Sequence record: PP514360
Length of the DNA stretch: 44,319 bases
DNA from: Escherichia phage HK1
Direction: 5' to 3' (one strand)
A program made the position numbers and the translations under genes. A model generated the notes under the pieces. The model did not search any database and was not told where the DNA came from. It was given only the letters and a program-made list of their open reading frames with translations. Positions 2,396 through 32,312 of this stretch are shown piece after piece (the first letter of the stretch is position 1; every line of letters starts with the position of its first letter).

Positions 2396-2846
2396 GGTCG
2401 GTGTCTATCGCATACAGGGCGATTTTATTGCCGGTTTTGAGAATGCGTTGCACGCGCTTTGATTCCTCGGCAATAAGCGGGCGCGCGTCCGGGTAGATGC
2501 TGCCGTTTGTAGGGTTGCGCCACGCCATGAGCACAAGGTCTTTCCGGGCGATCGAAGACTGGCGGCCCTTCGGACGCACGTACTCCTCCGCACGTTTACA
2601 GTGCTCACGCAAACTATCGGCAGTGATGCGGTTTAGTGCAACGCTGGTGGTGTATCCGGTGCGCTGCATAATCCCCATCAATTCGAATAGCAGTTCGAAG
2701 CGCTCCTCTAACTCCATGCGACGCTTTTCTTCCGTTTCATAACCTGACCGGAAGATTTCGGCCGATTGTTTCGCGTTGGCCGTTTGCTCGCGGGCTTCGA
2801 GGCATTGCGCGGCCCAGTAATTTTTCTCTTCTTGTAAAATTTTCAT
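2382..2846 (-). CDS. hypothetical protein (154 aa)
   Basis: ORF with GGAGA SD ~10 nt upstream of ATG at 2846; preceded by promoter TTGCAT-17-TATATT (2894-2922) carrying two ATTGGTTGCA motifs. Confidence 0.55.
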   Translation of the reverse strand: MKILQEEKNYWAAQCLEAREQTANAKQSAEIFRSGYETEEKRRMELEERFELLFELMGIMQRTGYTTSVALNRITADSLREHCKRAEEYVRPKGRQSSIARKDLVLMAWRNPTNGSIYPDARPLIAEESKRVQRILKTGNKIALYAIDTDHEEE

Positions 2847-2893
2847 CGTGTTGTCTCCAGGTATTAAAAAGGGCGTCCAAACCGGACACCCTC

Positions 2894-2927
2894 AATATAA
2901 TGCAACCAATATGATTATGCAACCAAT
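2894..2927 (-). promoter_or_regulatory. sigma70-like promoter with two ATTGGTTGCAT copies
   Basis: Minus strand TTGCAT-17 nt-TATATT; a second ATTGGTTGCAT fills the spacer; ~50 nt upstream of the ATG at 2846. Confidence 0.45.
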
Positions 2928-3251
2928 TTACGCATAAAAGTTTGGGTCGCGCGCTACGTCTACCAGATACAGATTGCTGATCCGGTTGCCGTAGTGCCCT
3001 GGCGTGCGCTGGCGGCACACAACGGCGAAGCCTGGGGGGATTGTATTGCCCGTCTCAATAATCCACGCCACGCGTGCGCCAGACAGCGTCTTACCGTTGT
3101 ATTCGATACGTGTTCCGCCATCGGCAGTGTTAAGGTTGCCAATCTTGCAGCCTGTGGACTTCAGGCGAATGACGCCGGTCTTGCTGTCGTAGGAAAAAAG
3201 CTGATTGGTCATTGCCACTGAAAAGTCGATGGCGTCGAATGTAGTATTCAT
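2928..3251 (-). CDS. HNH-family homing endonuclease-like protein (NUMOD4/HNH_3-like)
   Basis: LFSYDSKTGVIR resembles the NUMOD4 motif and GHYGNRISNLYLV resembles the NNRxSNL core of HNH_3 endonucleases; GAGGAAAA SD upstream of ATG at 3251. Canonical first His not obvious, so may be degenerate. Confidence 0.45.
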   Translation of the reverse strand: MNTTFDAIDFSVAMTNQLFSYDSKTGVIRLKSTGCKIGNLNTADGGTRIEYNGKTLSGARVAWIIETGNTIPPGFAVVCRQRTPGHYGNRISNLYLVDVARDPNFYA

Positions 3252-3943
3252 TTTAAATTTTCCTCGTTAACCGCTATCGCGAAGCCGCGCGGGGTGAGTG
3301 AGCGGATTAATTTTGTACGAGCGGATTTACCACCGAGGCGACTATACTGTTTCGAGTACCCTTTTTCAACGAAAACAGGTTTCTTCTCTGGCATACGGAA
3401 GCCGTTGCCGGTCCATAAGCAGGTCAGCTTCGGATATGAATCGCGGGCGTTGATGTATTCAGGGAATAACGGGTGTACGTCATCCTCTGGCAAATAGCCG
3501 CCATACTCCCACGGGTCAAACGAGTGGTCCGGCCTACGCCATTGAGTGGAGAGCACGCTGCGCGGATTCTCAATCATATACGGCACTTCAAAGAAATCAC
3601 CCAGGTAAGCGGCGATCTTCGCGGTGCGTACCGCCTTAAGCTGGAAGGCAGGGTCGCGGGCGCGTTTGCGCGGGAAAGCTGGCGCACCGCTAACCGCCAG
3701 ATCCGTACACGGCGGGAATGCATAAATGATATCCGGCGTGCCGAAATCACCATTCATCGCGCGGTCCACGAAGTCCAGGTCGATAAACTCATTGCGATAG
3801 CGAATGCCGCGACCATAGATCCGGTAGTCCAGGTATGACCCGTGATCGGCCTCGGAGTAGTTGAAGCAATAACACTTATGCCCCATCTCGGCAGCACGTT
3901 CAATCATCAAGCCGCTGCCGTCAAATAATGACCAGATAATCAT
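3248..3943 (-). CDS. short DNA (cytosine-5)-methyltransferase-like protein
   Basis: LFDGSG (motif I, FxGxG), PPCTDLAVSG (motif IV, PC) and MIENPRS (motif VI, ENV-like) appear in the canonical order; only 231 aa, shorter than typical C5-MTases. Confidence 0.5.
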   Translation of the reverse strand: MIIWSLFDGSGLMIERAAEMGHKCYCFNYSEADHGSYLDYRIYGRGIRYRNEFIDLDFVDRAMNGDFGTPDIIYAFPPCTDLAVSGAPAFPRKRARDPAFQLKAVRTAKIAAYLGDFFEVPYMIENPRSVLSTQWRRPDHSFDPWEYGGYLPEDDVHPLFPEYINARDSYPKLTCLWTGNGFRMPEKKPVFVEKGYSKQYSRLGGKSARTKLIRSLTPRGFAIAVNEENLK

Positions 3944-5364
3944 TTGCGCGCCTTTTTTGCTTTCATGTATTCCATTAAATCGTCCTGAATGTCTCGCTTA
4001 CTGTCGCGACGCTCCGCGACCAGTTCGTCCAGTGTGCCGCGCGCCTGGATAATGTAGACGAATACAGGACGAGGGTGTCCGGCTTGCATCTGACGAACTG
4101 GCCCGATACGCTCCACGATCTGCGAAAAATGCTCATAGTTCCAGGTGTCGGAGAAGATGGCAAGGTGGTGTCCTCCATCCTGCAAGTTAAGGCCGTGACC
4201 CGCCGATGCCGGGTGTGCGAACATGATGGGGATCTCGCCCCTGTTCCACGCTTCCATGTCCTTATTGCCTTGCTTACCCTTACCCATCGCTACGCCGTGC
4301 GGGAATTTCTTCTTGAGACGCGCCAGGTCATGCTTGTACTGGTACGCGACGAGCAACGGTGCGCCGTTCAACTCCTCCACGATACTTTCCAGCGCGTCCA
4401 GTTTAGCGTCGTGAATTTTCACCCATTCGTCGGTGCGCTCGCCGTCTTCGTCGACTTTATATACGGCCCCGGAAGCAAGCTGAAGGCACTTAATAGTCTT
4501 CGACGCGGCGTTAGCCGCCTCCACTGTTCCGCTTTCCAGTTCTGCAAATAGCTCCGCTTCGAACTGGTCATAAATCTTGCGGGCTTTCTTCGGCAGGTCC
4601 ACAACAACCGGCGTATAGATTGGCTTGTCGCATCCGAAGTATTCAGCCGCGTCAACGGTGAGCGATACGTCAGACAGGCGTTGTTGTATTTCTTTCTCGG
4701 AGTTCTTGAGCGGGGCGTGTTGCATAGTGAAGCTGCCAGGCTTAACAGGCTTGCTAATAAACCAGCGGTCTGTGAATGCCTTATAACTACTGCCGAGGCG
4801 TTCGCCACCGTCGACAAACCACGTCTGACCCCATAGGTCTTTCAGTCCGTTTGGTGCGGGTGTGCCGGTAAGGTTAATCCAGCGCTTGACGCGCTTATGT
4901 GCGATCGCCGCCAGGGCGCGGGCGCGCTTACTTCCCTGCTTGCTGCGGTAGCCTTTCAGCTTAGTGGATTCATCGGCAACAACGACCGTAAAGGGCCACT
5001 CGTCGCCGCAATAGTCAACCAGCCACTCAACCACATCATAGTTAACACAAACCACGTTAGCGTCGCTCTCAAGCGCAGCGATGCGGTCCTTCTCTGACCC
5101 GGTGCCGTCTACTACCAGCAGGGCGGGGAAGCGCCATTTTTCTTGTTCCGGGGGCCATGTGCCCGATGCAACGCGCAGCGGGGCAAGCACCAGTACGCGG
5201 TCCTCCTGGTTGGACAGGATGCCGGTCTGGAACATTTTATTCAGCGCCCACATGGTCGCGCCGGTTTTACCCGACCCCATTGTCGCCCAAATATTGCAGC
5301 GCTTATGCTTGAGGATGAACGCGGTTATCAACTTCTGATATTCGCGACGTCGGAAACGTGCCAT
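3940..5364 (-). CDS. SNF2/DEAD-like superfamily-2 DNA helicase
   Basis: Walker A ATMGSGKTG, DExx-like VVVADEST, motif III LTGTPAPN and a C-terminal helicase domain. Start placed at MARFRRREYQ (ATG 5364) just after the stop of the upstream gene; the track ORF extends to 5454 but overlaps that gene. Confidence 0.8.
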   Translation of the reverse strand: MARFRRREYQKLITAFILKHKRCNIWATMGSGKTGATMWALNKMFQTGILSNQEDRVLVLAPLRVASGTWPPEQEKWRFPALLVVDGTGSEKDRIAALESDANVVCVNYDVVEWLVDYCGDEWPFTVVVADESTKLKGYRSKQGSKRARALAAIAHKRVKRWINLTGTPAPNGLKDLWGQTWFVDGGERLGSSYKAFTDRWFISKPVKPGSFTMQHAPLKNSEKEIQQRLSDVSLTVDAAEYFGCDKPIYTPVVVDLPKKARKIYDQFEAELFAELESGTVEAANAASKTIKCLQLASGAVYKVDEDGERTDEWVKIHDAKLDALESIVEELNGAPLLVAYQYKHDLARLKKKFPHGVAMGKGKQGNKDMEAWNRGEIPIMFAHPASAGHGLNLQDGGHHLAIFSDTWNYEHFSQIVERIGPVRQMQAGHPRPVFVYIIQARGTLDELVAERRDSKRDIQDDLMEYMKAKKARK

Positions 5365-5368
5365 ATCT

Positions 5369-5587
5369 TTATTCCGCCTTTTTCCAGACTTCGGTTTCAC
5401 TGTTCCAATTCCTCTTTGTGGCGTAATAGTATGGGTCGTGCTCAAGGTGCACACCGGTAGCGCGGAAGCTCTGGAACTTTTGCCAGCACACGGTCAGCGG
5501 CAGCGGTTTAGCCATTCCTGAAGTAAACCATACGCGATCGCCCGGTTTGCATTCGCCCAGCTTGGTGAGTCGGTAATGTTCTTTCAT
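5369..5587 (-). CDS. small hypothetical protein (~72 aa)
   Basis: ORF MKEHYRLTKLGECKPGDR...; GGGAGA ~7 nt upstream of ATG at 5587; terminator-like hairpin immediately upstream (5601-5623). Confidence 0.45.
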   Translation of the reverse strand: MKEHYRLTKLGECKPGDRVWFTSGMAKPLPLTVCWQKFQSFRATGVHLEHDPYYYATKRNWNSETEVWKKAE

Positions 5588-5600
5588 CGTCATGTCTCCC

Positions 5601-5623
5601 AAAAATGGCGGGACAAGCCCGCC
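5601..5623 (-). terminator. intrinsic terminator/attenuator-like hairpin
   Basis: Minus-strand GGCGGG-cttgt-CCCGCC followed by AUUUUUG, between the zinc-ribbon gene and the next gene. Confidence 0.4.
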
Positions 5624-5630
5624 GTATTAA

Positions 5631-5804
5631 TTATTTTTGCTCTGCGCGGTAGCGGCGCTGCCGTTCGCGCTCTTTTTTATTGCGGCACGATTTGCACTCT
5701 GCCCGATACCCGTCCGGGCTTCGCGCAGTCTTACCGGTGTATTTATGGAACTGGGATAGCGGTTTAACGCAGCCGCAATTACTGCAACGTTTTTCTTCAA
5801 TCAT
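5631..5804 (-). CDS. small zinc-ribbon protein with basic C-terminal tail (candidate transcription factor)
   Basis: MIEEKRCSNCGC...AECKSCRNKKERERQRRYRAEQK: CxxC...CxxC arrangement plus Arg/Lys tail; GAGG SD upstream of ATG at 5804; promoter TTGCTG-17-TATAGT at 5836-5864. The longer track ORF start at 5876 lies within the promoter motif. Confidence 0.5.
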   Translation of the reverse strand: MIEEKRCSNCGCVKPLSQFHKYTGKTARSPDGYRAECKSCRNKKERERQRRYRAEQK

Positions 5805-5835
5805 CTCTAAAATCCTCGATATGGCTAACCGGCAC

Positions 5836-5870
5836 ACTATACCGCTACGCGACCAATTCAGCAACCAATA
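5836..5870 (-). promoter_or_regulatory. sigma70-like promoter with ATTGGTTGC motif
   Basis: Minus strand ATTTATTGGTTGCTG; TTGCTG-17 nt-TATAGT; upstream of the zinc-ribbon gene. Confidence 0.45.
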
Positions 5871-6123
5871 AATCACAGTCGGCTATGCTGTCGATAACGC
5901 GAACGTCCGCACCGCGGCGGGCCATTCGCTCATGTTCTCGTACCTGGTGCGGCTTAGGTTTACCGCCTGGGCGCTTCACTTCGACGAAAACTATCTTGCC
6001 GTTGATGATGATAATCAGATCGGGCGCACCTGCGCGCCCCTCCCAAGCCACTTTGCGGCAGAATCCGCCGACGGCTTTCACCCGTCTCATCAAGTGACTT
6101 TGGATCTTGCCTTCTGGTGTCAT
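5845..6123 (-). CDS. VRR-NUC domain nuclease
   Basis: GAPDLIIIINGKIVFVEVKRPGGKPKPHQ matches the VRR-NUC core; ATG at 6123 overlaps the DNA polymerase stop (TAATG). Confidence 0.65.
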   Translation of the reverse strand: MTPEGKIQSHLMRRVKAVGGFCRKVAWEGRAGAPDLIIIINGKIVFVEVKRPGGKPKPHQVREHERMARRGADVRVIDSIADCDLLVAELVA

Positions 6124-8414
6124 TATTTCCTGTACCTGTACATAATGTCGCCTTCCGCGGCAAGCGGGAAGCCTTTCGCCCAAACCGGCAGGTCGCACAT
6201 CAGCGCGCACAACTCCTCGGTTGTGTAGTCGTCGGTATCCGGCACTTCGGTTATCAGTTCATCGTGTACGGACAGTACGATCTCATACCCCGCAGCTTCA
6301 ACGCCCGGCATGGACCATGCGAGGATATCGCGGCACAGCGCCTGCACGATGTTTTCCGTCAGTTTACCGCCGTAGGTATACTGGAATCCCCACTGGCGCG
6401 TCGTCTGATTCTCGCCCTGATATTTAATGCGTGTGCTGGTGCGCTTCTTGCCGGTGTCTTCGTCGATCTCGGTCGTCACTGACAGCGCAATGCCTGGATA
6501 ACTCATAATACGCCCCGACGGCAACTCAATTTTCAACCACCACCCCGCGGCGTTCGGGTCGTCGCGTTCCTCGTCGAAGGTTGGGTCATGCTTCGCCTTC
6601 GTGCGGACTATCTTGAGCGCTTTCTTACCATCCGGGCGAACGTTCGCGCCAGCCCAGTACGCTTTGCCAGGATTGCGGATTGCACACAACACCGCGTCTT
6701 CAAGCTCGGCCCAAAAGGCTACCGTCTTCGGGTGAGCCTCGCGCCACATGCGTTTAATCGCATCACACGTAAGCCATACGTTTTTCGGCAGTATGTAAGT
6801 CGGGCGCTCGTCCTTCTTGCCCGGCTTCGGCGGTCGCTTCGCTTCGTTAATGCGGGCGTACTCATAACCACGTTTCGCCGCCGCCCAAATGTGATCGGGG
6901 AATGTGCCCTTCATCACGTCAGCCATCGCATAAAGGTCGAGGCCCAGGTTTTTAGCGAACTGCAAGAACGCAGCTACGCCGCCGCCATAGCCAAGTCCCA
7001 ACTCACACGCCTTACCAATCTGGCGTAGATCTTTGCGGTTGGCTTTAATGTATTCCGGGTCAAGGCCGAACATCTTACCGGCAGTTTCACAATAAATATC
7101 GCGACCGGCCCTAAACACCATTAGCGCGGTTTTCTCGCCCGCGGTCCAGGCAAGGCCGCGCCCTTCCACGTTGGAGTAGTCCGCGACGACAAACTTCTTG
7201 CCCTTCGCCGGAATAATGCACCCGCGAACGGTCGAGGCCGTTAGCTTCGATATGTCATACGCCCAGTGTGCGGTCCCGCGTAACAGGGAGTTTATGCCGT
7301 TGGTGAGCATGTGCGACCGCACCCAAAACGCGACGTCGCTCTCGCCTTCACGGCGTTTAATCTTCCCTTCGTGGTCATCGCTATACTCGCCGCGTGCCAG
7401 GTTTTGAGGCTGAAAGCCTTTACCGGCCCAGCGTAGCGTGCGCTTTGCGCCGCCATACTGGAGACAACCACGGCGGCGACCATCGGCGGATAGGCCATTA
7501 ACGAGCGGATTGTACTTAGTCGACGCCGTGGATGACGCACCGAGGCGCATCTCTATAAGCACTTTGCCCTCGTCCGGGAAGTCTGGATCTTCTAGCAGGT
7601 CGTTAAGCGTGGATTTCTGCGCGTTGTGGATTGTGAACGCAGGCGCGAGGTCGCGCAGCGCTGGCAGGAAGTCATTTCCGGTTAGCTTACCGCCGAAGCG
7701 CTCCCAGGCTTCTTCCTTTAATTCTTCCTTATGCGCCTGTACCGCTTTGATCGCAGCGCGTGCCAGGTCAACGTCCACATAGAAGCCGCGGTCGTTAATC
7801 AACTGGTCAATAAGCAGGATTTCGTCTTCCTTCGGCGTATTACCCCAGTCCGGTATGCGCCAATAGACTTCCCTCATCGCGATGATATCCAGCGCGGCAT
7901 AGCGCAGGAATTTAGCCCATTCTTCAGGGTGAGTCTCGCGGGTGTAGCGGCGGATTTTGTAGGTCTTAGGGGTTGGCTTACAGAATCGTTTGATCAGCGC
8001 CTTGCCAGCCTTATCCTTCGCGTGTTCTGCGTCAACGCCAAGCACCTGGCACTGCATGTCGAGACTACCCGGCAGCGCGTGTCGGAAGGCCATAATCATG
8101 GTGTCTTCGATCTGGCACACTGGCAGGTCAATGCCCCACTTCTCGCGAATAACCAGGCGGTCAAACAGGAGGCCGTTAGCCATCACGATTTTTGCTTTCT
8201 TGCGGGATACCTGGCGGAGCGCCTTGCGCAGTTCACGTGGCATTGTGGGGGACTCGGTGCAATCCCATGTCTGCACGCGGCCCTCGTCGATGGCGTAGGT
8301 GCAAATCATAATCTCGGTGGTTGGGTGCTCTGCGTAGGCGTATGCGCCAACTTTCTTCAGGTCTACCCCGCTAAATGTCTCGGTATCGAGAAACAGGCGT
8401 TCGAAGTCTTTCAT
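6123..8414 (-). CDS. family-A DNA polymerase with N-terminal 3'-5' exonuclease domain
   Basis: 763 aa; FLDTETFSG (exo I), DYSNVEGRGLA (pol motif A, DYSQIELR-like), KACELGLGYGGG (motif B), LSVHDELITE (motif C). Confidence 0.9.
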   Translation of the reverse strand: MKDFERLFLDTETFSGVDLKKVGAYAYAEHPTTEIMICTYAIDEGRVQTWDCTESPTMPRELRKALRQVSRKKAKIVMANGLLFDRLVIREKWGIDLPVCQIEDTMIMAFRHALPGSLDMQCQVLGVDAEHAKDKAGKALIKRFCKPTPKTYKIRRYTRETHPEEWAKFLRYAALDIIAMREVYWRIPDWGNTPKEDEILLIDQLINDRGFYVDVDLARAAIKAVQAHKEELKEEAWERFGGKLTGNDFLPALRDLAPAFTIHNAQKSTLNDLLEDPDFPDEGKVLIEMRLGASSTASTKYNPLVNGLSADGRRRGCLQYGGAKRTLRWAGKGFQPQNLARGEYSDDHEGKIKRREGESDVAFWVRSHMLTNGINSLLRGTAHWAYDISKLTASTVRGCIIPAKGKKFVVADYSNVEGRGLAWTAGEKTALMVFRAGRDIYCETAGKMFGLDPEYIKANRKDLRQIGKACELGLGYGGGVAAFLQFAKNLGLDLYAMADVMKGTFPDHIWAAAKRGYEYARINEAKRPPKPGKKDERPTYILPKNVWLTCDAIKRMWREAHPKTVAFWAELEDAVLCAIRNPGKAYWAGANVRPDGKKALKIVRTKAKHDPTFDEERDDPNAAGWWLKIELPSGRIMSYPGIALSVTTEIDEDTGKKRTSTRIKYQGENQTTRQWGFQYTYGGKLTENIVQALCRDILAWSMPGVEAAGYEIVLSVHDELITEVPDTDDYTTEELCALMCDLPVWAKGFPLAAEGDIMYRYRK

Positions 8415-8639: not shown

Positions 8640-9419
8640 TTAACGACGGCGACGTTTACGTGGTGCTTCGTCTTCGTCGTCTTCGTCCTCATCTTCATCG
8701 TCGCGTGGCTTACGACGTTTACGAGGTTTTTCATCTTCGTCGTCGTCATCGTGGCGCTTGGACTTTTTGGACTTGCGCGGCTTGTCGTCTTCGTCGTCGT
8801 CATCACGACGTTTTGACTTTTTGGACTTGCGCGGGCTTTCATCTTCGTCATCGTTGTCCAGGTCTTCGTCGGAGCAAGAAGAACCGCCACCACCGAAGGA
8901 TTCACCATCATCGCGGAAGCGCAGACCCAGCAAGCCAGCCCCGAGTCCCTTGCCGTTGGTATTGTTCCACGCCCAAATATCAATGGACACGTTGCAATAA
9001 CAACCGGAGTAAATCTCCCGTCCTTCGATCTCGTCGCCTTCTACGGTCAGACCTTGTTCCGTCTGCTTCTCGCCGAGTGACGTTTGAATGTTTGGTTGTT
9101 TGAACGATTTGGTGTTGATATACAACATGCCTTCGAATTCTTCGGTTACTTCGTCGCGCTCATCACCGTCGCGAACAGCGCACTCCTTAGAATCCTGGGC
9201 GTAGTGGCGGTCCATCCACTTATCGGCGTTCTTCTCGGATTTCAGCTTGTCGGTGAGCACTGCGCGCGCTGCCGCTTCCACTTTGTCCACCTGCGGATCT
9301 TCTTTATCCAGAAGAATCACGGCACGGTATGCCGGTTTCTGACCATCTTTTTTAGGGGTATCGCGCTCCCAAATATTAAGGAAACATACGCGCACATTTT
9401 TCAGGTTGACTTTAGCCAT
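8640..9419 (-). CDS. putative ssDNA-binding protein (DUF2815/T7 gp2.5-like) with repetitive acidic/basic C-terminal tail
   Basis: N-terminus MAKVNLKNVRVCFLNIWE resembles the DUF2815 family that commonly sits between DUF2800 and PolA; C-terminus is a tandem repeat (DDDDEDxKPRKSKKSKR). ATG at 9419 (track start at 9440 is GTG). Confidence 0.55.
   Translation of the reverse strand: MAKVNLKNVRVCFLNIWERDTPKKDGQKPAYRAVILLDKEDPQVDKVEAAARAVLTDKLKSEKNADKWMDRHYAQDSKECAVRDGDERDEVTEEFEGMLYINTKSFKQPNIQTSLGEKQTEQGLTVEGDEIEGREIYSGCYCNVSIDIWAWNNTNGKGLGAGLLGLRFRDDGESFGGGGSSCSDEDLDNDDEDESPRKSKKSKRRDDDDEDDKPRKSKKSKRHDDDDEDEKPRKRRKPRDDEDEDEDDEDEAPRKRRRR
8695..8860. repeat. intragenic tandem repeat (~57-bp unit) encoding alternating acidic/basic tail of the SSB-like protein
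   Basis: TTTTTGGACTTGCGCGG...TCGTCGTCGTCATC appears in tandem; encodes DDDDEDxKPRKSKKSKR units. Confidence 0.7.
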
Positions 9420-9509
9420 TTTACAATTTCCCATTTTCACATGTATCGGGGTTATTGTGAGCCACCCCGTTCGGCTTGGTTGCTAATCTACTTGGTTGCG
9501 CCTAAGCGG

Positions 9510-11660: not shown

Positions 11661-12176
11661 TTAATCTTCCAGTTCGAAATAGGTTTCGACGATTTCTTTT
11701 AGCTCTTTGTGGAAGTCTTCGACGTCGTCATCTTCCAGCTTGGCGATTGATTTGATCTCGAACGATTCCAGCAGGTCGTCGAATTCGTCGTTCGCGTCGT
11801 CGTCATCACCACCCGCAATAATCGCGGCATACTGTTTGATTTCGTCGCGCATCTCCGCCAGCGGATCGGCATCTTTCTTACCTTTGCCTTTCGCCGGTGC
11901 TTTCTTAGACTTAGCCGGTTTTTCGTCTTCGGCATCGTCGTCGTCATCTTCTACGACTTCTTTTTTAGCCTTACCTTTCGCCGGTGCTTTTTTAGATTTA
12001 GCCGGTTTTTCGTCTTCAGCTTCATCGTCGTCATCTTCGACAACTTCTTTTTTGGCCTTAGACGGCTTCTTGTCTTCCTGCTTACCAACGGCAGCGCCAA
12101 CGGTTTCATAATGCTTTGCAATGGTTTCCAGTGCTACTACGCCGCGAGTGATCAGGTTTACGATTTGCTCAAACAT
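11661..12176 (-). CDS. acidic protein with tandem Lys-rich/Asp-Glu-rich repeats (histone-H1-like KAPAKGK units)
   Basis: Start at MFEQIVNL (ATG 12176) with GGAGA SD; internal 29-aa unit KKEVVEDDDDEAEDEKPAKSKKAPAKGKA repeated twice; strongly acidic C-terminus. The track ORF start at 12356 runs through the promoter region and is unlikely. Confidence 0.55.
   Translation of the reverse strand: MFEQIVNLITRGVVALETIAKHYETVGAAVGKQEDKKPSKAKKEVVEDDDDEAEDEKPAKSKKAPAKGKAKKEVVEDDDDDAEDEKPAKSKKAPAKGKGKKDADPLAEMRDEIKQYAAIIAGGDDDDANDEFDDLLESFEIKSIAKLEDDDVEDFHKELKEIVETYFELED
11881..12057. repeat. intragenic tandem repeat (~88-bp unit, two copies) in the acidic repeat protein gene
   Basis: CCTTTCGCCGGTGCTTT(C/T)TTAGA(C/T)TTAGCCGGTTTTTCGTCTTC...TCGTCGTCATCTTC twice in tandem; resembles the SSB-gene repeat unit at nucleotide level. 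Confidence 0.7.
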
Positions 12177-12413
12177 GGTATATCTCCGATTGGTTAAGTT
12201 TAGGTGTCGGCAGTTAACTTCGTCGGTGGCCTTAACATATTGCCAGGTTACGCGTTCTCCCGTTCGGGTAGTGGACCTGGTTATATAATCACGGTTGGGA
12301 ATCCTGACACTTCGATCCGGCCCCTGCGTTGCCCCTCTCCAGTTTGCGTCCTGCATCCTGTCGACGGGGTGAATAATAGATTGGTTGCAGGATGGGTGTC
12401 AACAACTAATTTC

Positions 12414-12577: not shown

Positions 12578-12907
12578 ATGAATGTAAACGACGCAATCGA
12601 AATGTTAACGAAGACTGTTTGCAGTGAGACAAGCCGGTCATGGGCATATACCGATGCCGTGGGGGCGGTGTTATTTGAAATCGAACGACTGCGGCTTACC
12701 GAAAAAGAATTGCGCGCCAGGCTGGAACTACTCAACGGTACGGCAGCAAGCAAGCTGCAAAAGCACAATGAGGAAATGGAAGAATACAAAAAACAGGTTA
12801 TCCGTTTACGCGATGAGGGGAAGTCATGGGCAATGATCGCGGAGTTGACAGGAATTAATCAGAGCACCGTGCGATCCTGGGTACGCAATAACAAAACTTC
12901 GAAGTAA
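12578..12907 (+). CDS. HTH DNA-binding protein (putative transcriptional regulator)
   Basis: C-terminal KSWAMIAELTGINQSTVRSWVRN is a classic helix-turn-helix; GAGGG SD upstream; first gene of the plus-strand block, downstream of TTGACA-17-TAGTTT. Confidence 0.6.
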   Translation: MNVNDAIEMLTKTVCSETSRSWAYTDAVGAVLFEIERLRLTEKELRARLELLNGTAASKLQKHNEEMEEYKKQVIRLRDEGKSWAMIAELTGINQSTVRSWVRNNKTSK

Positions 12908-15182: not shown

Positions 15183-15275
15183 ATTTTGCGCGCATTGGTT
15201 GCCATTTTGAGCGTTTTTATCTGGGCGCATTGGTTGCCGTGTAGTGTGAATATAATGCATAGTTATGCAATAAAA

Positions 15276-15450
15276 CTGCATAAAACAAACGGGACAAAAA
15301 GCGGGACAAACAGGAGGCGGGACAAAGCGGGACAGCACCCCGTCCCACCCACGGATGACGCGGCCTGGCGAGGAGCGGGACAGCGGGACAGCACCCCAGT
15401 CTTTCAGACTAGACGGGGGGTCTGTCACCCCCCTCGTCTGAGACTGCATA
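15276..15450. repeat. copy A of duplicated non-coding module (GCGGGACA array plus GC-rich hairpin)
   Basis: CTGCATAAAACAAAC followed by four direct GGGACA repeats, GGGAC-agcacccc-GTCCC, two more GCGGGACA, then hairpin CAGTCTTTCAGACTAGACGGGGGG-tctgtca-CCCCCCTCGTCTGAGACTG. Near-identical to 32076-32250. Confidence 0.8.
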
Positions 15451-17492: not shown

Positions 17493-17783
17493 ATGGATAA
17501 GCTAAACGAGTGGCTATTCGCCCTGGCATGTCTGGCGGGTGGCTTCGTAGGCGCACGCATTCATGGTGAGGCTACGAAGGGGCCGCTAAACTTCGTTTTG
17601 TATGTTGTAGTTGGCTTCCTGTGTGCCATATTTGGCGCACCGGCTATCGCTGAGTGGGCTGGTTTGTCGGGGGAGCGCACTGTCGCCGGTTTGGGCTTCG
17701 TGACAGCAATTTTCTGGATGCCAATCGCCGACCGGATCAGGGAGACTATTGCGTCGTTCCGACTTCCGGGGGGTGCAAAATGA
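17493..17783 (+). CDS. holin-like membrane protein (96 aa, ~3 hydrophobic segments)
   Basis: Three hydrophobic stretches; sits two genes upstream of the endolysin. Confidence 0.5.
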   Translation: MDKLNEWLFALACLAGGFVGARIHGEATKGPLNFVLYVVVGFLCAIFGAPAIAEWAGLSGERTVAGLGFVTAIFWMPIADRIRETIASFRLPGGAK

Positions 17784-18025
17784 TTATCTCCGTCCTGTTG
17801 TTTGTTATCATCGGGGCTTCGTCCCTGTTTAACGTGTATGCGCCGTCCGTCCGGGATGGCATTTTCGGCCGGGTGCTGTATCTGTTAACGGCAATGGTCT
17901 GTATTATCGGATTGTTGCAAACAGGAGACGTATCTGATACCACCTGGACCGCGTTAATATGGCTGTTTGCATTGCGCACCCTGCGTAATGCTGTTTTGAA
18001 TGGGGTAAAACATGCGATTCAGTGA
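17780..18025 (+). CDS. holin/antiholin-like membrane protein (81 aa)
   Basis: MIISVLLFVIIGASSLF... hydrophobic; start overlaps the upstream stop (ATGA); immediately precedes and overlaps the endolysin gene. Confidence 0.5.
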   Translation: MIISVLLFVIIGASSLFNVYAPSVRDGIFGRVLYLLTAMVCIIGLLQTGDVSDTTWTALIWLFALRTLRNAVLNGVKHAIQ

Positions 18026-31933: not shown

Positions 31934-31967
31934 GCGGGACAAAACGGGACGTCCCGTTTTGTCCCGC
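31934..31967. promoter_or_regulatory. perfect 34-bp palindrome built from GCGGGACA units
   Basis: GCGGGACAAAACGGGAC|GTCCCGTTTTGTCCCGC, five nt after the GT stop codon; candidate operator or hairpin. Confidence 0.55.
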
Positions 31968-32075
31968 CGCCATTAAACCGCATATATACTCACTTTCATT
32001 GCATAAACTAAAAGCGGGACGGGGTGCTGTCCCGATCTGTCCCACCCCTTAAAAGTGAATAGCTATGCGGTTTTT

Positions 32076-32250
32076 CTGCATAAAACAAACGGGACAGAAA
32101 GCGGGACAGAATGAGGCGGGACAAAGCGGGACAGCACCCCGTCCCCGTCAGTGCTGCCGCGGGTTTTAGCCGATCGGGACAGGCGGGACAAAGCCCAGTC
32201 TTTCAGACTAGACGGGGGTCATCGGCCCCCCTCGTCTGAGACTGAATAAG
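32076..32250. repeat. copy B of duplicated non-coding module (GCGGGACA array plus GC-rich hairpin)
   Basis: Same order of elements as copy A with a few substitutions; hairpin arms conserved while the loop differs (tcatcgg versus tctgtca). Confidence 0.8.
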
Positions 32251-32312
32251 GTTTGTTTTAAATTCGCTGATACAATGACCGACGGCAACTGCATAAAAAG
32301 GGGGACTGCATA

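Follow-up and report, generated by a model that had tools for sequence, protein, structure and literature searches.

The zinc-module gene and its surroundings

The window, i.e., the whole 44,319-nucleotide stretch of DNA from Escherichia phage HK1 that was analysed (PP514360), represents the entire genome of a Dhillonvirus of the HK578/JL1/SO-1 type and shares 93–95% nucleotide identity with more than 150 records. On its minus strand, positions 5631..5804 hold an open reading frame which runs from an ATG (5804–5802) to a TAA (5633–5631) and encodes a protein of 57 amino acids, MIEEKRCSNCGCVKPLSQFHKYTGKTARSPDGYRAECKSCRNKKERERQRRYRAEQK (minus strand, 5804 down to 5631), referred to below as the zinc-module protein. 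This frame had been proposed from the sequence alone and is confirmed by translation; the plus strand at 5631–5804 has many stops. Two CxxC pairs, C7-x2-C10 and C37-x2-C40, are separated by 26 residues; of the 304 ORFs in the window that encode 45 aa or more, only three have the pattern CxxC-N15–35-CxxC. Overall, the protein contains 17 Lys/Arg as opposed to 7 Asp/Glu residues (pI 9.85). The Arg/Lys-rich tail previously described is indeed present, as nine of the 17 residues from 41 to 57 are Lys or Arg, and it is helical in the predicted structure discussed below. A λ-N-like Arg-rich RNA-binding function of this tail was considered and dropped, since its sequence varies among orthologues and only its basic helical character is kept.

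The gene is located inside the DNA-replication operon, which agrees with its earlier assignment to an early block (the operon is presumably early or middle). All neighboring genes lie on the minus strand. Upstream, the PolA gene (6123–8414) is followed by a gene for a 92-aa VRR-NUC nuclease (5845..6123; Pfam VRR_NUC, 3.7e-6), which is annotated as a Holliday junction resolvase or endonuclease. Downstream, an ORF of 74–77 aa with no assigned function (5369–5602) separates the zinc-module gene from the gene of a SNF2-family helicase (3940..5364; Pfam SNF2-rel_dom, 3.3e-11), after which methyltransferases are encoded.

A promoter-like site (5836..5869, minus strand) overlaps the 3′ end of the VRR-NUC gene and is made up of the motif ATTGGTTGC (5869–5861), a −35-like TTGCTG (5864–5859) followed by a 17-nt spacer which contains a second, degenerate motif copy, ATTGGTCGC (5857–5849), and a −10-like TATAGT (5841–5836). 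A Shine-Dalgarno-like GAGGA (5813..5817, minus strand) is found 8 nt upstream of the ATG. Beyond the stop codon, a terminator scan of both strands revealed a GC-rich, intrinsic-terminator-like hairpin with a U-run on the minus strand (5597..5623), consisting of GGCGGG-CUUGU-CCCGCC (5623–5607) and the subsequent AUUUUUGGG, with a predicted RNA folding energy of −13.4 kcal/mol (z −1.4). No known RNA family was detected by Rfam anywhere in the window.

The sequence-only reading had assigned the gene a promoter of its own. A simple consensus promoter scan called nothing upstream, as TTGCTG-17-TATAGT matches the consensus at three of six and five of six positions, respectively; the promoter-like site itself, however, is well conserved. 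The motif and TATAGT/TATGAT are kept in 10 aligned Dhillonvirus-like loci, and TTGCNN-17-TAnnnT recurs at the same place, within the last VRR-NUC codons, in at least nine diverged lineages (L028, L027, L040, L039, L007, L008, L005, L025, and Smarc3). Conservation of the site thus makes an own promoter plausible. Furthermore, GAGGA is kept in nine of the 10 aligned sequences (L024 has CGAAGG there), and the terminator-like hairpin in nine of the 10 loci, being absent in L024 and altered in its loop in L023. Judged from these sequence signals, the zinc-module gene seems to form a small separate transcription unit in Dhillonviruses, which would be transcribed from its own putative promoter to its own putative terminator.

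The gene order PolA, VRR-NUC, zinc module, zero to two small ORFs, and SNF2 was found at 19 diverged loci beyond the near-identical Dhillonvirus copies (L005–L010, L026, L028, L039, L040, L042–L044, L050, L051, L054, L056, L067, and, up to the contig end, L024). In these loci, PolA identity amounts to 60–69%, with the exception of L024 (81%). Eiauvirus, Serratia phage Smarc3 and numerous metagenomic phage contigs share the part of this order that extends from VRR-NUC to SNF2. VRR-NUC lies upstream in all zinc-module loci in which that flank is covered; it was not found in L025, and L027 covers only about 160 bases upstream of the match. The zinc-module stop codon and the SNF2 start overlap by 8 nt in L005 and by 4 nt in L007, which suggests co-translation. 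Other phages do without the module: in Jerseyvirus SS3e and Kagunavirus Bas72, where the SNF2 helicase is 65–67% identical, a Cys-free 63-aa protein occupies the zinc-module slot, and Caulobacter phage Jess A and APSE-7 have no zinc module either. The core replication chemistry can therefore proceed without it.

Conservation and selection

A tblastn search detected the zinc-module gene in 164 phage records, 157 of which show 90–100% amino acid identity. Across 10 distinct nucleotide versions, pN/pS is 0.04 (pS 0.32, pN 0.014). Due to this purifying selection and the wide presence of the gene, it is neither a chance ORF nor a decaying fragment, but a real gene under purifying selection.

Among 25 orthologues, with identities down to 42%, C7, C10, C37, and C40 are invariant, as are K5, K14, S29, D31, G32, R34, and R41; R28, K38, P15, and F19 are nearly so. 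The best-kept stretch of the protein is FHKYxGxxxRSxDGxRxxCKxCR, within which several syntenic orthologues have Ser or Gly in place of H20. The previously noted third cysteine adjacent to the first pair, C12, varies among orthologues and is therefore not a ligand, so that of the cysteine pattern originally described the two CxxC pairs stand and the additional residue does not.

These data also bear on the proposal that the gene descends from a homing HNH endonuclease and, while decaying, has kept nothing but a functionless DNA-binding module. Such an origin would fit the finding that paralogous modules are parts of homing-type nucleases (see below), and nucleases of this type are inserted in the same region in SS3e and Bas72. 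Decay is already contradicted by the selection data, as a pN/pS of 0.04 is accompanied by a pS of 0.32; moreover, syntenic orthologues from many lineages are intact at 42–70% identity with all four cysteines and eight other invariant positions, and the promoter-like and Shine-Dalgarno sites are conserved. A remnant is thus the least credible of the explanations considered here.

A free-standing member of a widespread Cys4 module family

Searching Pfam and NCBIfam with the zinc-module protein alone yielded only sub-threshold zinc-ribbon noise: DUF6510 scored 13.6 bits against a cutoff of 26.4, and Pfam Stc1 did not match. Among the 25 orthologues, 22 match DUF6510 and 10 match Stc1, with whole-protein E-values no better than 4.4e-4 and 1.2e-3, respectively, and two family members weakly match Pfam His_Me_b4a2. 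In PHROGs, the protein matches phrog_5558 (“Lar-like”) at 6.5e-17 as well as endonuclease VII and HNH families at 1e-10 to 1e-6. A word-indexed search with the single sequence returned only three near-identical proteins, so that an exhaustive profile search of 1.84 billion protein representatives was needed (E ≤ 1e-3, with a second search using the alignment). It revealed 2422 relatives with E-values down to 1e-22, most of which are 200–700 aa long and contain the module two to nine times in tandem. Among 117 relatives scanned, Pfam Stc1 was found in 74, DUF6510 in 47, HNH in 18, Endonuclease_7 in 16, and HNH_5 in 14, whereas T5orf172, MUG113, or Bro-N were isolated cases. Judging from this domain make-up, the module is a common, non-catalytic, tandem N-terminal part of homing-type nucleases.

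The consensus of the 117 distant relatives, K-x-C-x2-C-x3-KP-x3-F...DG-x4-CK-x-C, is matched by the zinc-module protein, which belongs to a distinct free-standing group of 54–90 aa. This group is characterized by the signature C-x2-C-G-x2-KP-x3-FHKY-x-G-x3-RS-x-DG-x-R-x2-CK-x-CRN, followed by a basic helix. In the zinc-module protein, a Cys4 module with kinship to Stc1, DUF6510, and His_Me_b4a2 thus occurs on its own; its connection to proteins that do carry Stc1 was made by the profile search. According to the profile search, the tandem Cys4 modules of HNH and endonuclease VII proteins (e.g., the “endonuclease VII” Bas72_0041) are the same module. In contrast to these nucleases, which combine two to nine copies with a catalytic domain, the protein of the window consists of a single copy without a catalytic domain, and it differs further by a longer hairpin-2 loop, by its own signature FHKYxGxxxRSxDG and by its fixed syntenic position.

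The top PDB sequence match, Schizosaccharomyces pombe Stc1 (PDB 2luy; Pfam PF12898), covers only the first knuckle. Stc1 is a protein bridge between Ago1 (RNAi) and CLRC (PMC2875855); unlike the phage protein, it is eukaryotic and has two fingers.

Predicted fold and loss of the catalytic residues

An AlphaFold2 model computed with the family alignment as input reached a pLDDT of 90.2 and exhibits strands at residues 4–6, 13–15, 19–21, and 33–37 followed by a helix at 38–56. In this model, the second CxxC lies at the strand-helix junction, corresponding to a treble-clef or β4-α2 arrangement. The description as a small zinc ribbon consequently needs to be revised: the protein is a small Cys4 protein, but in the model its second CxxC is at the start of a helix, which does not correspond to a classical two-hairpin ribbon.

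The best PDB match of the model in Foldseek is Hpy99I (3fc3; probability 0.97, TMq 0.54), and PacI is also among the best structure matches. In a profile-to-PDB search, the sequence profiles reach Hpy99I residues 74–121; at 17–23% identity, Hpy99I is the only PDB sequence match which is aligned across the whole module. Hpy99I residues 65–126 form the first of two β4-α2 repeats, each of which holds a structural zinc by two CXXC motifs, one located on hairpin 1 and the other at the start of helix 1 (PMC2699513). The second repeat corresponds to the active ββα-Me site, whereas the first is non-catalytic and reads bases by inserting hairpin 2 into the major groove (PMC2699513). The Hpy99I repeat is one domain of a 190-aa dimeric enzyme and is placed next to the active repeat, while the phage protein is free, comprises 57 aa and has only one helix, which is basic.

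Aligning the family to an ordinary HNH core by hhalign places the four cysteines and H20 in register. The position of the metal-ligand Asp is taken by F19 (Tyr in some orthologues) and that of the Asn by the invariant R41. Thus, the predicted structure shows the β-hairpin-plus-helix Cys4 core of a His-Me finger, and the protein lacks the catalytic set of Asp-His and an Asn/His ligand. Because the metal-ligand positions are replaced, the protein is very unlikely to cut DNA, as far as can be judged from its residues, and it is not filed as a nuclease here. It is best described as an inactivated His-Me-finger core, in which the four cysteines presumably hold zinc, and free-standing modules of this kind are a conserved uncharacterised family.

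GGGACA arrays and the comparison to P2 Ogr

In the sequence-only reading, the protein was compared to the small zinc-finger late-gene activators of P2-type phages and was speculatively linked to arrays of GGGACA/GTCCC. These arrays are located at 15291–15390 and 31936–32190, each followed by a long hairpin, and they are strongly clustered, with nine CGGGACA copies within 250 bp. They are also present in JL1. Across the window, GGGACA occurs 26 times compared to 17 ± 4 times in shuffled sequences, and this excess is due only to the arrays.

In favor of an Ogr-like late-gene activator that binds the arrays and the palindrome at 31934–31967, the protein is a small Cys4 protein with a basic tail, and one GGGACA is indeed part of the hairpin just after the gene. 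This lone copy (5610–5615, plus strand) belongs to the terminator stem-loop, however, and it is the stem and not the motif which is kept, as L023 carries GGGACT at this place. The distribution of the arrays is a further argument against such an activator. GGGACA occurs seven times in eiAU and nine times in Smarc3 as opposed to about 25 expected copies, and eiAU has other repeats, GCAACCAAC and CGCCCCG, at both homologous positions, one of which follows the primase-helicase gene while the other precedes the tape-measure gene. The core of the zinc-module protein is nevertheless unchanged in these two array-less phages. As the arrays are specific to Dhillonviruses while the protein core is shared with relatives that have none, the proposed link is unsupported, and the sequence comparison provides modest evidence against it.

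The resemblance to P2-type activators does not extend beyond general features either. P2 Ogr and P4 Delta are, like the protein of the window, small phage proteins with four cysteines presumed to bind zinc. Pfam Ogr_Delta (PF04606) does not match the window protein at E ≤ 10 or any of the 25 orthologues at E ≤ 1, and hhalign against P2 Ogr (sequence from NC_001895) gives a probability of 0.5%. The cysteine spacing differs as well, being CX2CX22CX4C in P2 Ogr (C4, C7, C30, C35) and CX2CX26CX2C here, and Ogr lacks the basic tail. Furthermore, in P2 the ogr gene is situated beside attP/int, where it closes the late F operon behind the tail gene D, whereas the gene of the window lies in the replication operon. 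In view of these differences, of the arrays missing where the protein core persists and of an excess of GGGACA that is confined to the arrays, we consider an Ogr-like activator of the arrays very improbable.

The primase-helicase was also considered as a P4-α-like iteron-binding protein of the arrays; Pfam shows only AAA_25 and offers no support for this assignment.

A promoter-associated motif

The motif found at the putative zinc-module promoter is a dispersed element that accompanies many promoters of the phage. ATTGGTTGC (= GCAACCAAT) occurs in 14 exact copies in the window compared to about 0.3 expected, and its copies are often paired and located just upstream of gene starts. The 8-mer GCAACCAA is present 18 times in the window, 18 times in JL1, 23 times in eiAU, and 13 times in Smarc3, as opposed to about 1.2 expected copies, and the TTGGTTGC (GCAACCAA) motif is thus dispersed in Dhillonvirus-, Eiauvirus-, and Smarc3-like genomes. 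In SS3e, which has no zinc module, GCAACCAA is at chance level (two copies vs. about 1.2). Copies of the motif flank the zinc-module promoter in many lineages.

It could accordingly be asked whether the protein is a sequence-specific transcription regulator, either an activator or an autoregulating repressor, that acts on TTGGTTGC (= GCAACCAA) rather than on GGGACA. The numbers of ATTGGTTGC copies and their frequent pairing near gene starts point in this direction, as does the enrichment of GCAACCAA in all three fully sequenced lineages with a zinc module and not in SS3e. In many diverged loci, one or two motif copies directly precede the zinc-module gene, and the second copy often overlaps the predicted transcription start, where it would occupy an operator position. 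In addition, hairpin 2 is conserved in sequence across lineages to the same degree as the motif core, and a gene with its own putative promoter and terminator would suit a regulator. Conversely, the correlation extends over very few independent lineages, and an N6-methyltransferase and an acidic repeat protein (11661–12356) share the same phyletic pattern. More conventional regulators are available in the form of HTH proteins at the divergent control region (12578–12907 in the window; an XRE protein in Smarc3). L005, L051, L054, L056, and L067 show zero or one GCAACCAA nearby, part of the motif upstream of the zinc-module gene is constrained by its coding for the VRR-NUC C-terminus, and the motif may be an extended −35 element read by the host RNA polymerase. 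Taken together, a regulatory role is unlikely, yet it deserves to be kept in mind. If the protein did read TTGGTTGC, this would be a case of an inactivated HNH core turned phage transcription regulator.

A proposed accessory factor of the replication and recombination module

A nucleic-acid-binding role of the zinc-module protein is plausible. What we infer about its DNA binding, its partner proteins and its physiological role is guided by the nuclease-related family, the predicted fold, the missing catalytic residues, the gene neighborhood, the purifying selection and the basic charge of the protein, to which the invariant K5, K14, R34, and R41 and the nearly invariant R28 and K38 contribute. 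The protein would form a single β4-α2 or Stc1-like module with one structural zinc, two CxxC motifs and a basic C-terminal helix. By analogy to the first Hpy99I repeat, hairpin 2 (F19–R34) may enter the major groove while the basic helix runs along the backbone. Such a protein would most likely serve the replication and recombination module formed by PolA, VRR-NUC, the zinc module and the SNF2 helicase, possibly as a DNA-targeting or adaptor subunit which acts in trans for VRR-NUC or SNF2. This role in trans would parallel that of paralogues in which the module is covalently joined to an HNH or endonuclease VII nuclease. Our favored explanation is therefore worded as follows: a zinc-stabilised, catalytically dead His-Me-finger module binds DNA as an accessory factor of the replication and recombination module, a proposal in which we place about even confidence. 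The more specific ideas that the free module is a trans-acting reader of TTGGTTGC (GCAACCAA) or a detachable DNA-targeting subunit for VRR-NUC/SNF2 are clearly more doubtful.

Several observations speak against an accessory factor of this kind. The gene is not universal in the replication module, as illustrated by SS3e, Bas72, APSE-7, and Jess A, and in none of the 117 scanned relatives is the module fused to VRR-NUC or SNF2. Having a putative promoter and terminator to itself would be in keeping with a regulator, too. Moreover, the same fold can mediate protein-protein contacts, as in Stc1 (PMC2875855). The protein could therefore be a Stc1- or LIM-like protein-protein adaptor for SNF2, VRR-NUC, the polymerase or a host protein, including roles in anti-defence such as the restriction alleviation named in the “Lar-like” label. 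Matches of Pfam Stc1 to the wider family and the protein-bridging function of Stc1 itself (PMC2875855) are in line with such an adaptor, as is the “Lar-like” phrog_5558 match. The gene is, furthermore, accessory rather than core, as anti-defence genes often are, and small Dhillonvirus proteins are known to trigger or inhibit defence, namely the two that have been studied in experiments, Ksap1, the trigger of KpAvs2 (PMC11564622), and anti-Tmn (PMC11846954). The zinc-module protein is neither of these two, since Ksap1 comprises 74 aa and is encoded at a different locus (PMC11564622) and anti-Tmn is a helical rod (PMC11846954).

A relationship to Lar does not hold up to closer inspection. Rac Lar (RalR), the source of the RefSeq/PHROG “Lar-like” label, is annotated as an endodeoxyribonuclease toxin in MG1655; like the protein of the window, it is small and has a CxxC...CxxC pattern. 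Pfam Lar_restr_allev (PF14354) does not match the window protein, is found in three of the 25 orthologues only at E ≥ 0.065 and matches one of the 117 distant relatives (1e-4). In hhalign, the similarity to Rac Lar/RalR is restricted to 11 columns around the first CxxC (probability 38%), so that only this knuckle aligns and membership in the Lar/RalR family was rejected. Nucleic acid is suggested as the ligand by the strongly basic surface and by paralogues that are fused to nucleases, and the position of the gene in the replication operon is fixed even between diverged phages, whereas anti-defence genes are more often found in variable regions. An adaptor is thus rather improbable, and DNA binding in the service of replication and recombination is retained as the preferred role.

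The family consists of free-standing inactivated His-Me-finger modules that are encoded within the replication operons of quite a large group of enterobacterial siphophages; several of these phages are under development for therapy or biocontrol. If the protein were a site-specific DNA binder, it would exemplify how DNA recognition can be taken over by a nuclease-derived module standing alone. For the time being, it is an ordinary “conserved hypothetical” protein whose fold and context are now better defined. A specialist would hardly be surprised by it, short of a demonstration that it binds specific sites or works together with the adjacent enzymes. The protein is a small and tractable target.

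Public labels and insertions in the region

The gene has received diverse labels in public records, i.e., hypothetical protein, Lar-like restriction alleviation protein, HNH endonuclease, kilA anti-repressor protein and meiotic chromosome segregation protein, and in some records, e.g., that of eiAU, it has been left unannotated. No experimental basis was found for any of these labels, and the gene goes unmentioned in the EE09 proteomics paper. The “Lar-like” label looks like an annotation transfer between unrelated zinc knuckles. The present analysis corrects this misleading naming, as “Lar-like restriction alleviation protein,” “HNH endonuclease,” and “kilA anti-repressor” denote one and the same gene.

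Two of the phages without the module show insertions close to its slot: in SS3e, an HNH gene splits the PolA gene, and in Bas72, an endonuclease VII with zinc-module repeats is encoded between PolA and VRR-NUC.

Dispersed and Clustered Repeats

The 9-mer ATTGGTTGC (equivalent to GCAACCAAT) occurs in 14 exact copies in the window as opposed to approximately 0.3 expected, with sites at positions 1240, 2902/2919, 5849/5861, 12380, 15194/15229, 15511, 15601/15632, 16187, 26349/26363, and 42445. The copies are frequently found as pairs, spaced 12–35 bp apart, immediately 5' of gene starts, and in about half of the cases the TTGC(A/T)N portion is found 16–17 bp from a −10-like hexamer. The 9-mer is probably a phage promoter or operator element. 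Enrichment of GCAACCAA extends to the Eiauvirus eiAU (23 copies) and Serratia phage Smarc3 (13 copies), while a motif count in the Jerseyvirus SS3e returned two copies, which is no enrichment.

Two further regions, both intergenic, are homologous modules; in each, GCGGGACA repeats precede a hairpin (CCCAGTCTTTCAGACTAGACGGGGG...CCCCCTCGTCTGAGACTG) that is long and imperfect. The module at 15186–15450 lies immediately 3' of the primase-helicase gene and that at 31934–32260 between the tail-chaperone and tape-measure genes; neither matched any Rfam family. eiAU carries modules with a similar hairpin at both equivalent positions; their repeat units are different ones, GCAACCAAC and CGCCCCG. A perfect 34-bp palindrome, GCGGGACAAAACGGGACGTCCCGTTTTGTCCCGC (31934–31967), lies 4 bp past the TAA of the annotated tail-chaperone gene, the equivalent of gp47 in the related Dhillonvirus JL1, and no U-run is present on its 3' side.

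Another repeat, the heptamer CTTCGTC/ACGAAGA, is clustered at 8666–8864 (six in 200 bp). This cluster falls within a minus-strand ORF (8640–9440) aligning to JL1 gp23, which is annotated as a Gp2.5-like ssDNA-binding protein, and probably encodes an acidic Asp/Glu-rich tail.

Candidate Regulator and Phyletic Patterns

Immediately 5' of the primase-helicase gene, the plus-strand gene at 12578–12907 encodes a 109-aa protein with a clear helix-turn-helix, GKSWAMIAELTGINQSTVRSWVRN, at its C-terminal end, annotated in JL1 as a "transposase." This protein is a more conventional candidate regulator for the repeated DNA motifs than the zinc module, the 57-aa Cys4 protein for which the sequence-only reading had speculatively proposed such a role.

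The zinc-module gene is unannotated in the records of Edwardsiella phages eiAU and eiAU-183, where it lies at approximately 4965–5165 of the eiAU locus (approximately 17650–17820 of KF772233). In the Smarc3 locus it occupies 4944–5165, flanked or overlapped by differently called ORFs. Its phyletic pattern, present in eiAU and Smarc3 and absent from SS3e, is shared by the gene that opens the replication operon (11661–12356, minus strand), whose 231-aa product contains repeated acidic and Lys-rich blocks with …EDDDDEAEDEKPAKSKKAPAKGK… occurring twice.

In Jerseyvirus and Kagunavirus, a Cys-free 63-aa protein (MKYEYDRKPARDIVPGDMIF…) replaces the zinc module 3' of the VRR-NUC nuclease gene, encoded by SS3e orf45 (2818–3009 of locus L093) and Bas72_0037 (2526–2717 of the Kagunavirus locus L094). 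Bas72 additionally carries an endonuclease VII gene with several zinc-module copies, inserted between PolA and VRR-NUC.
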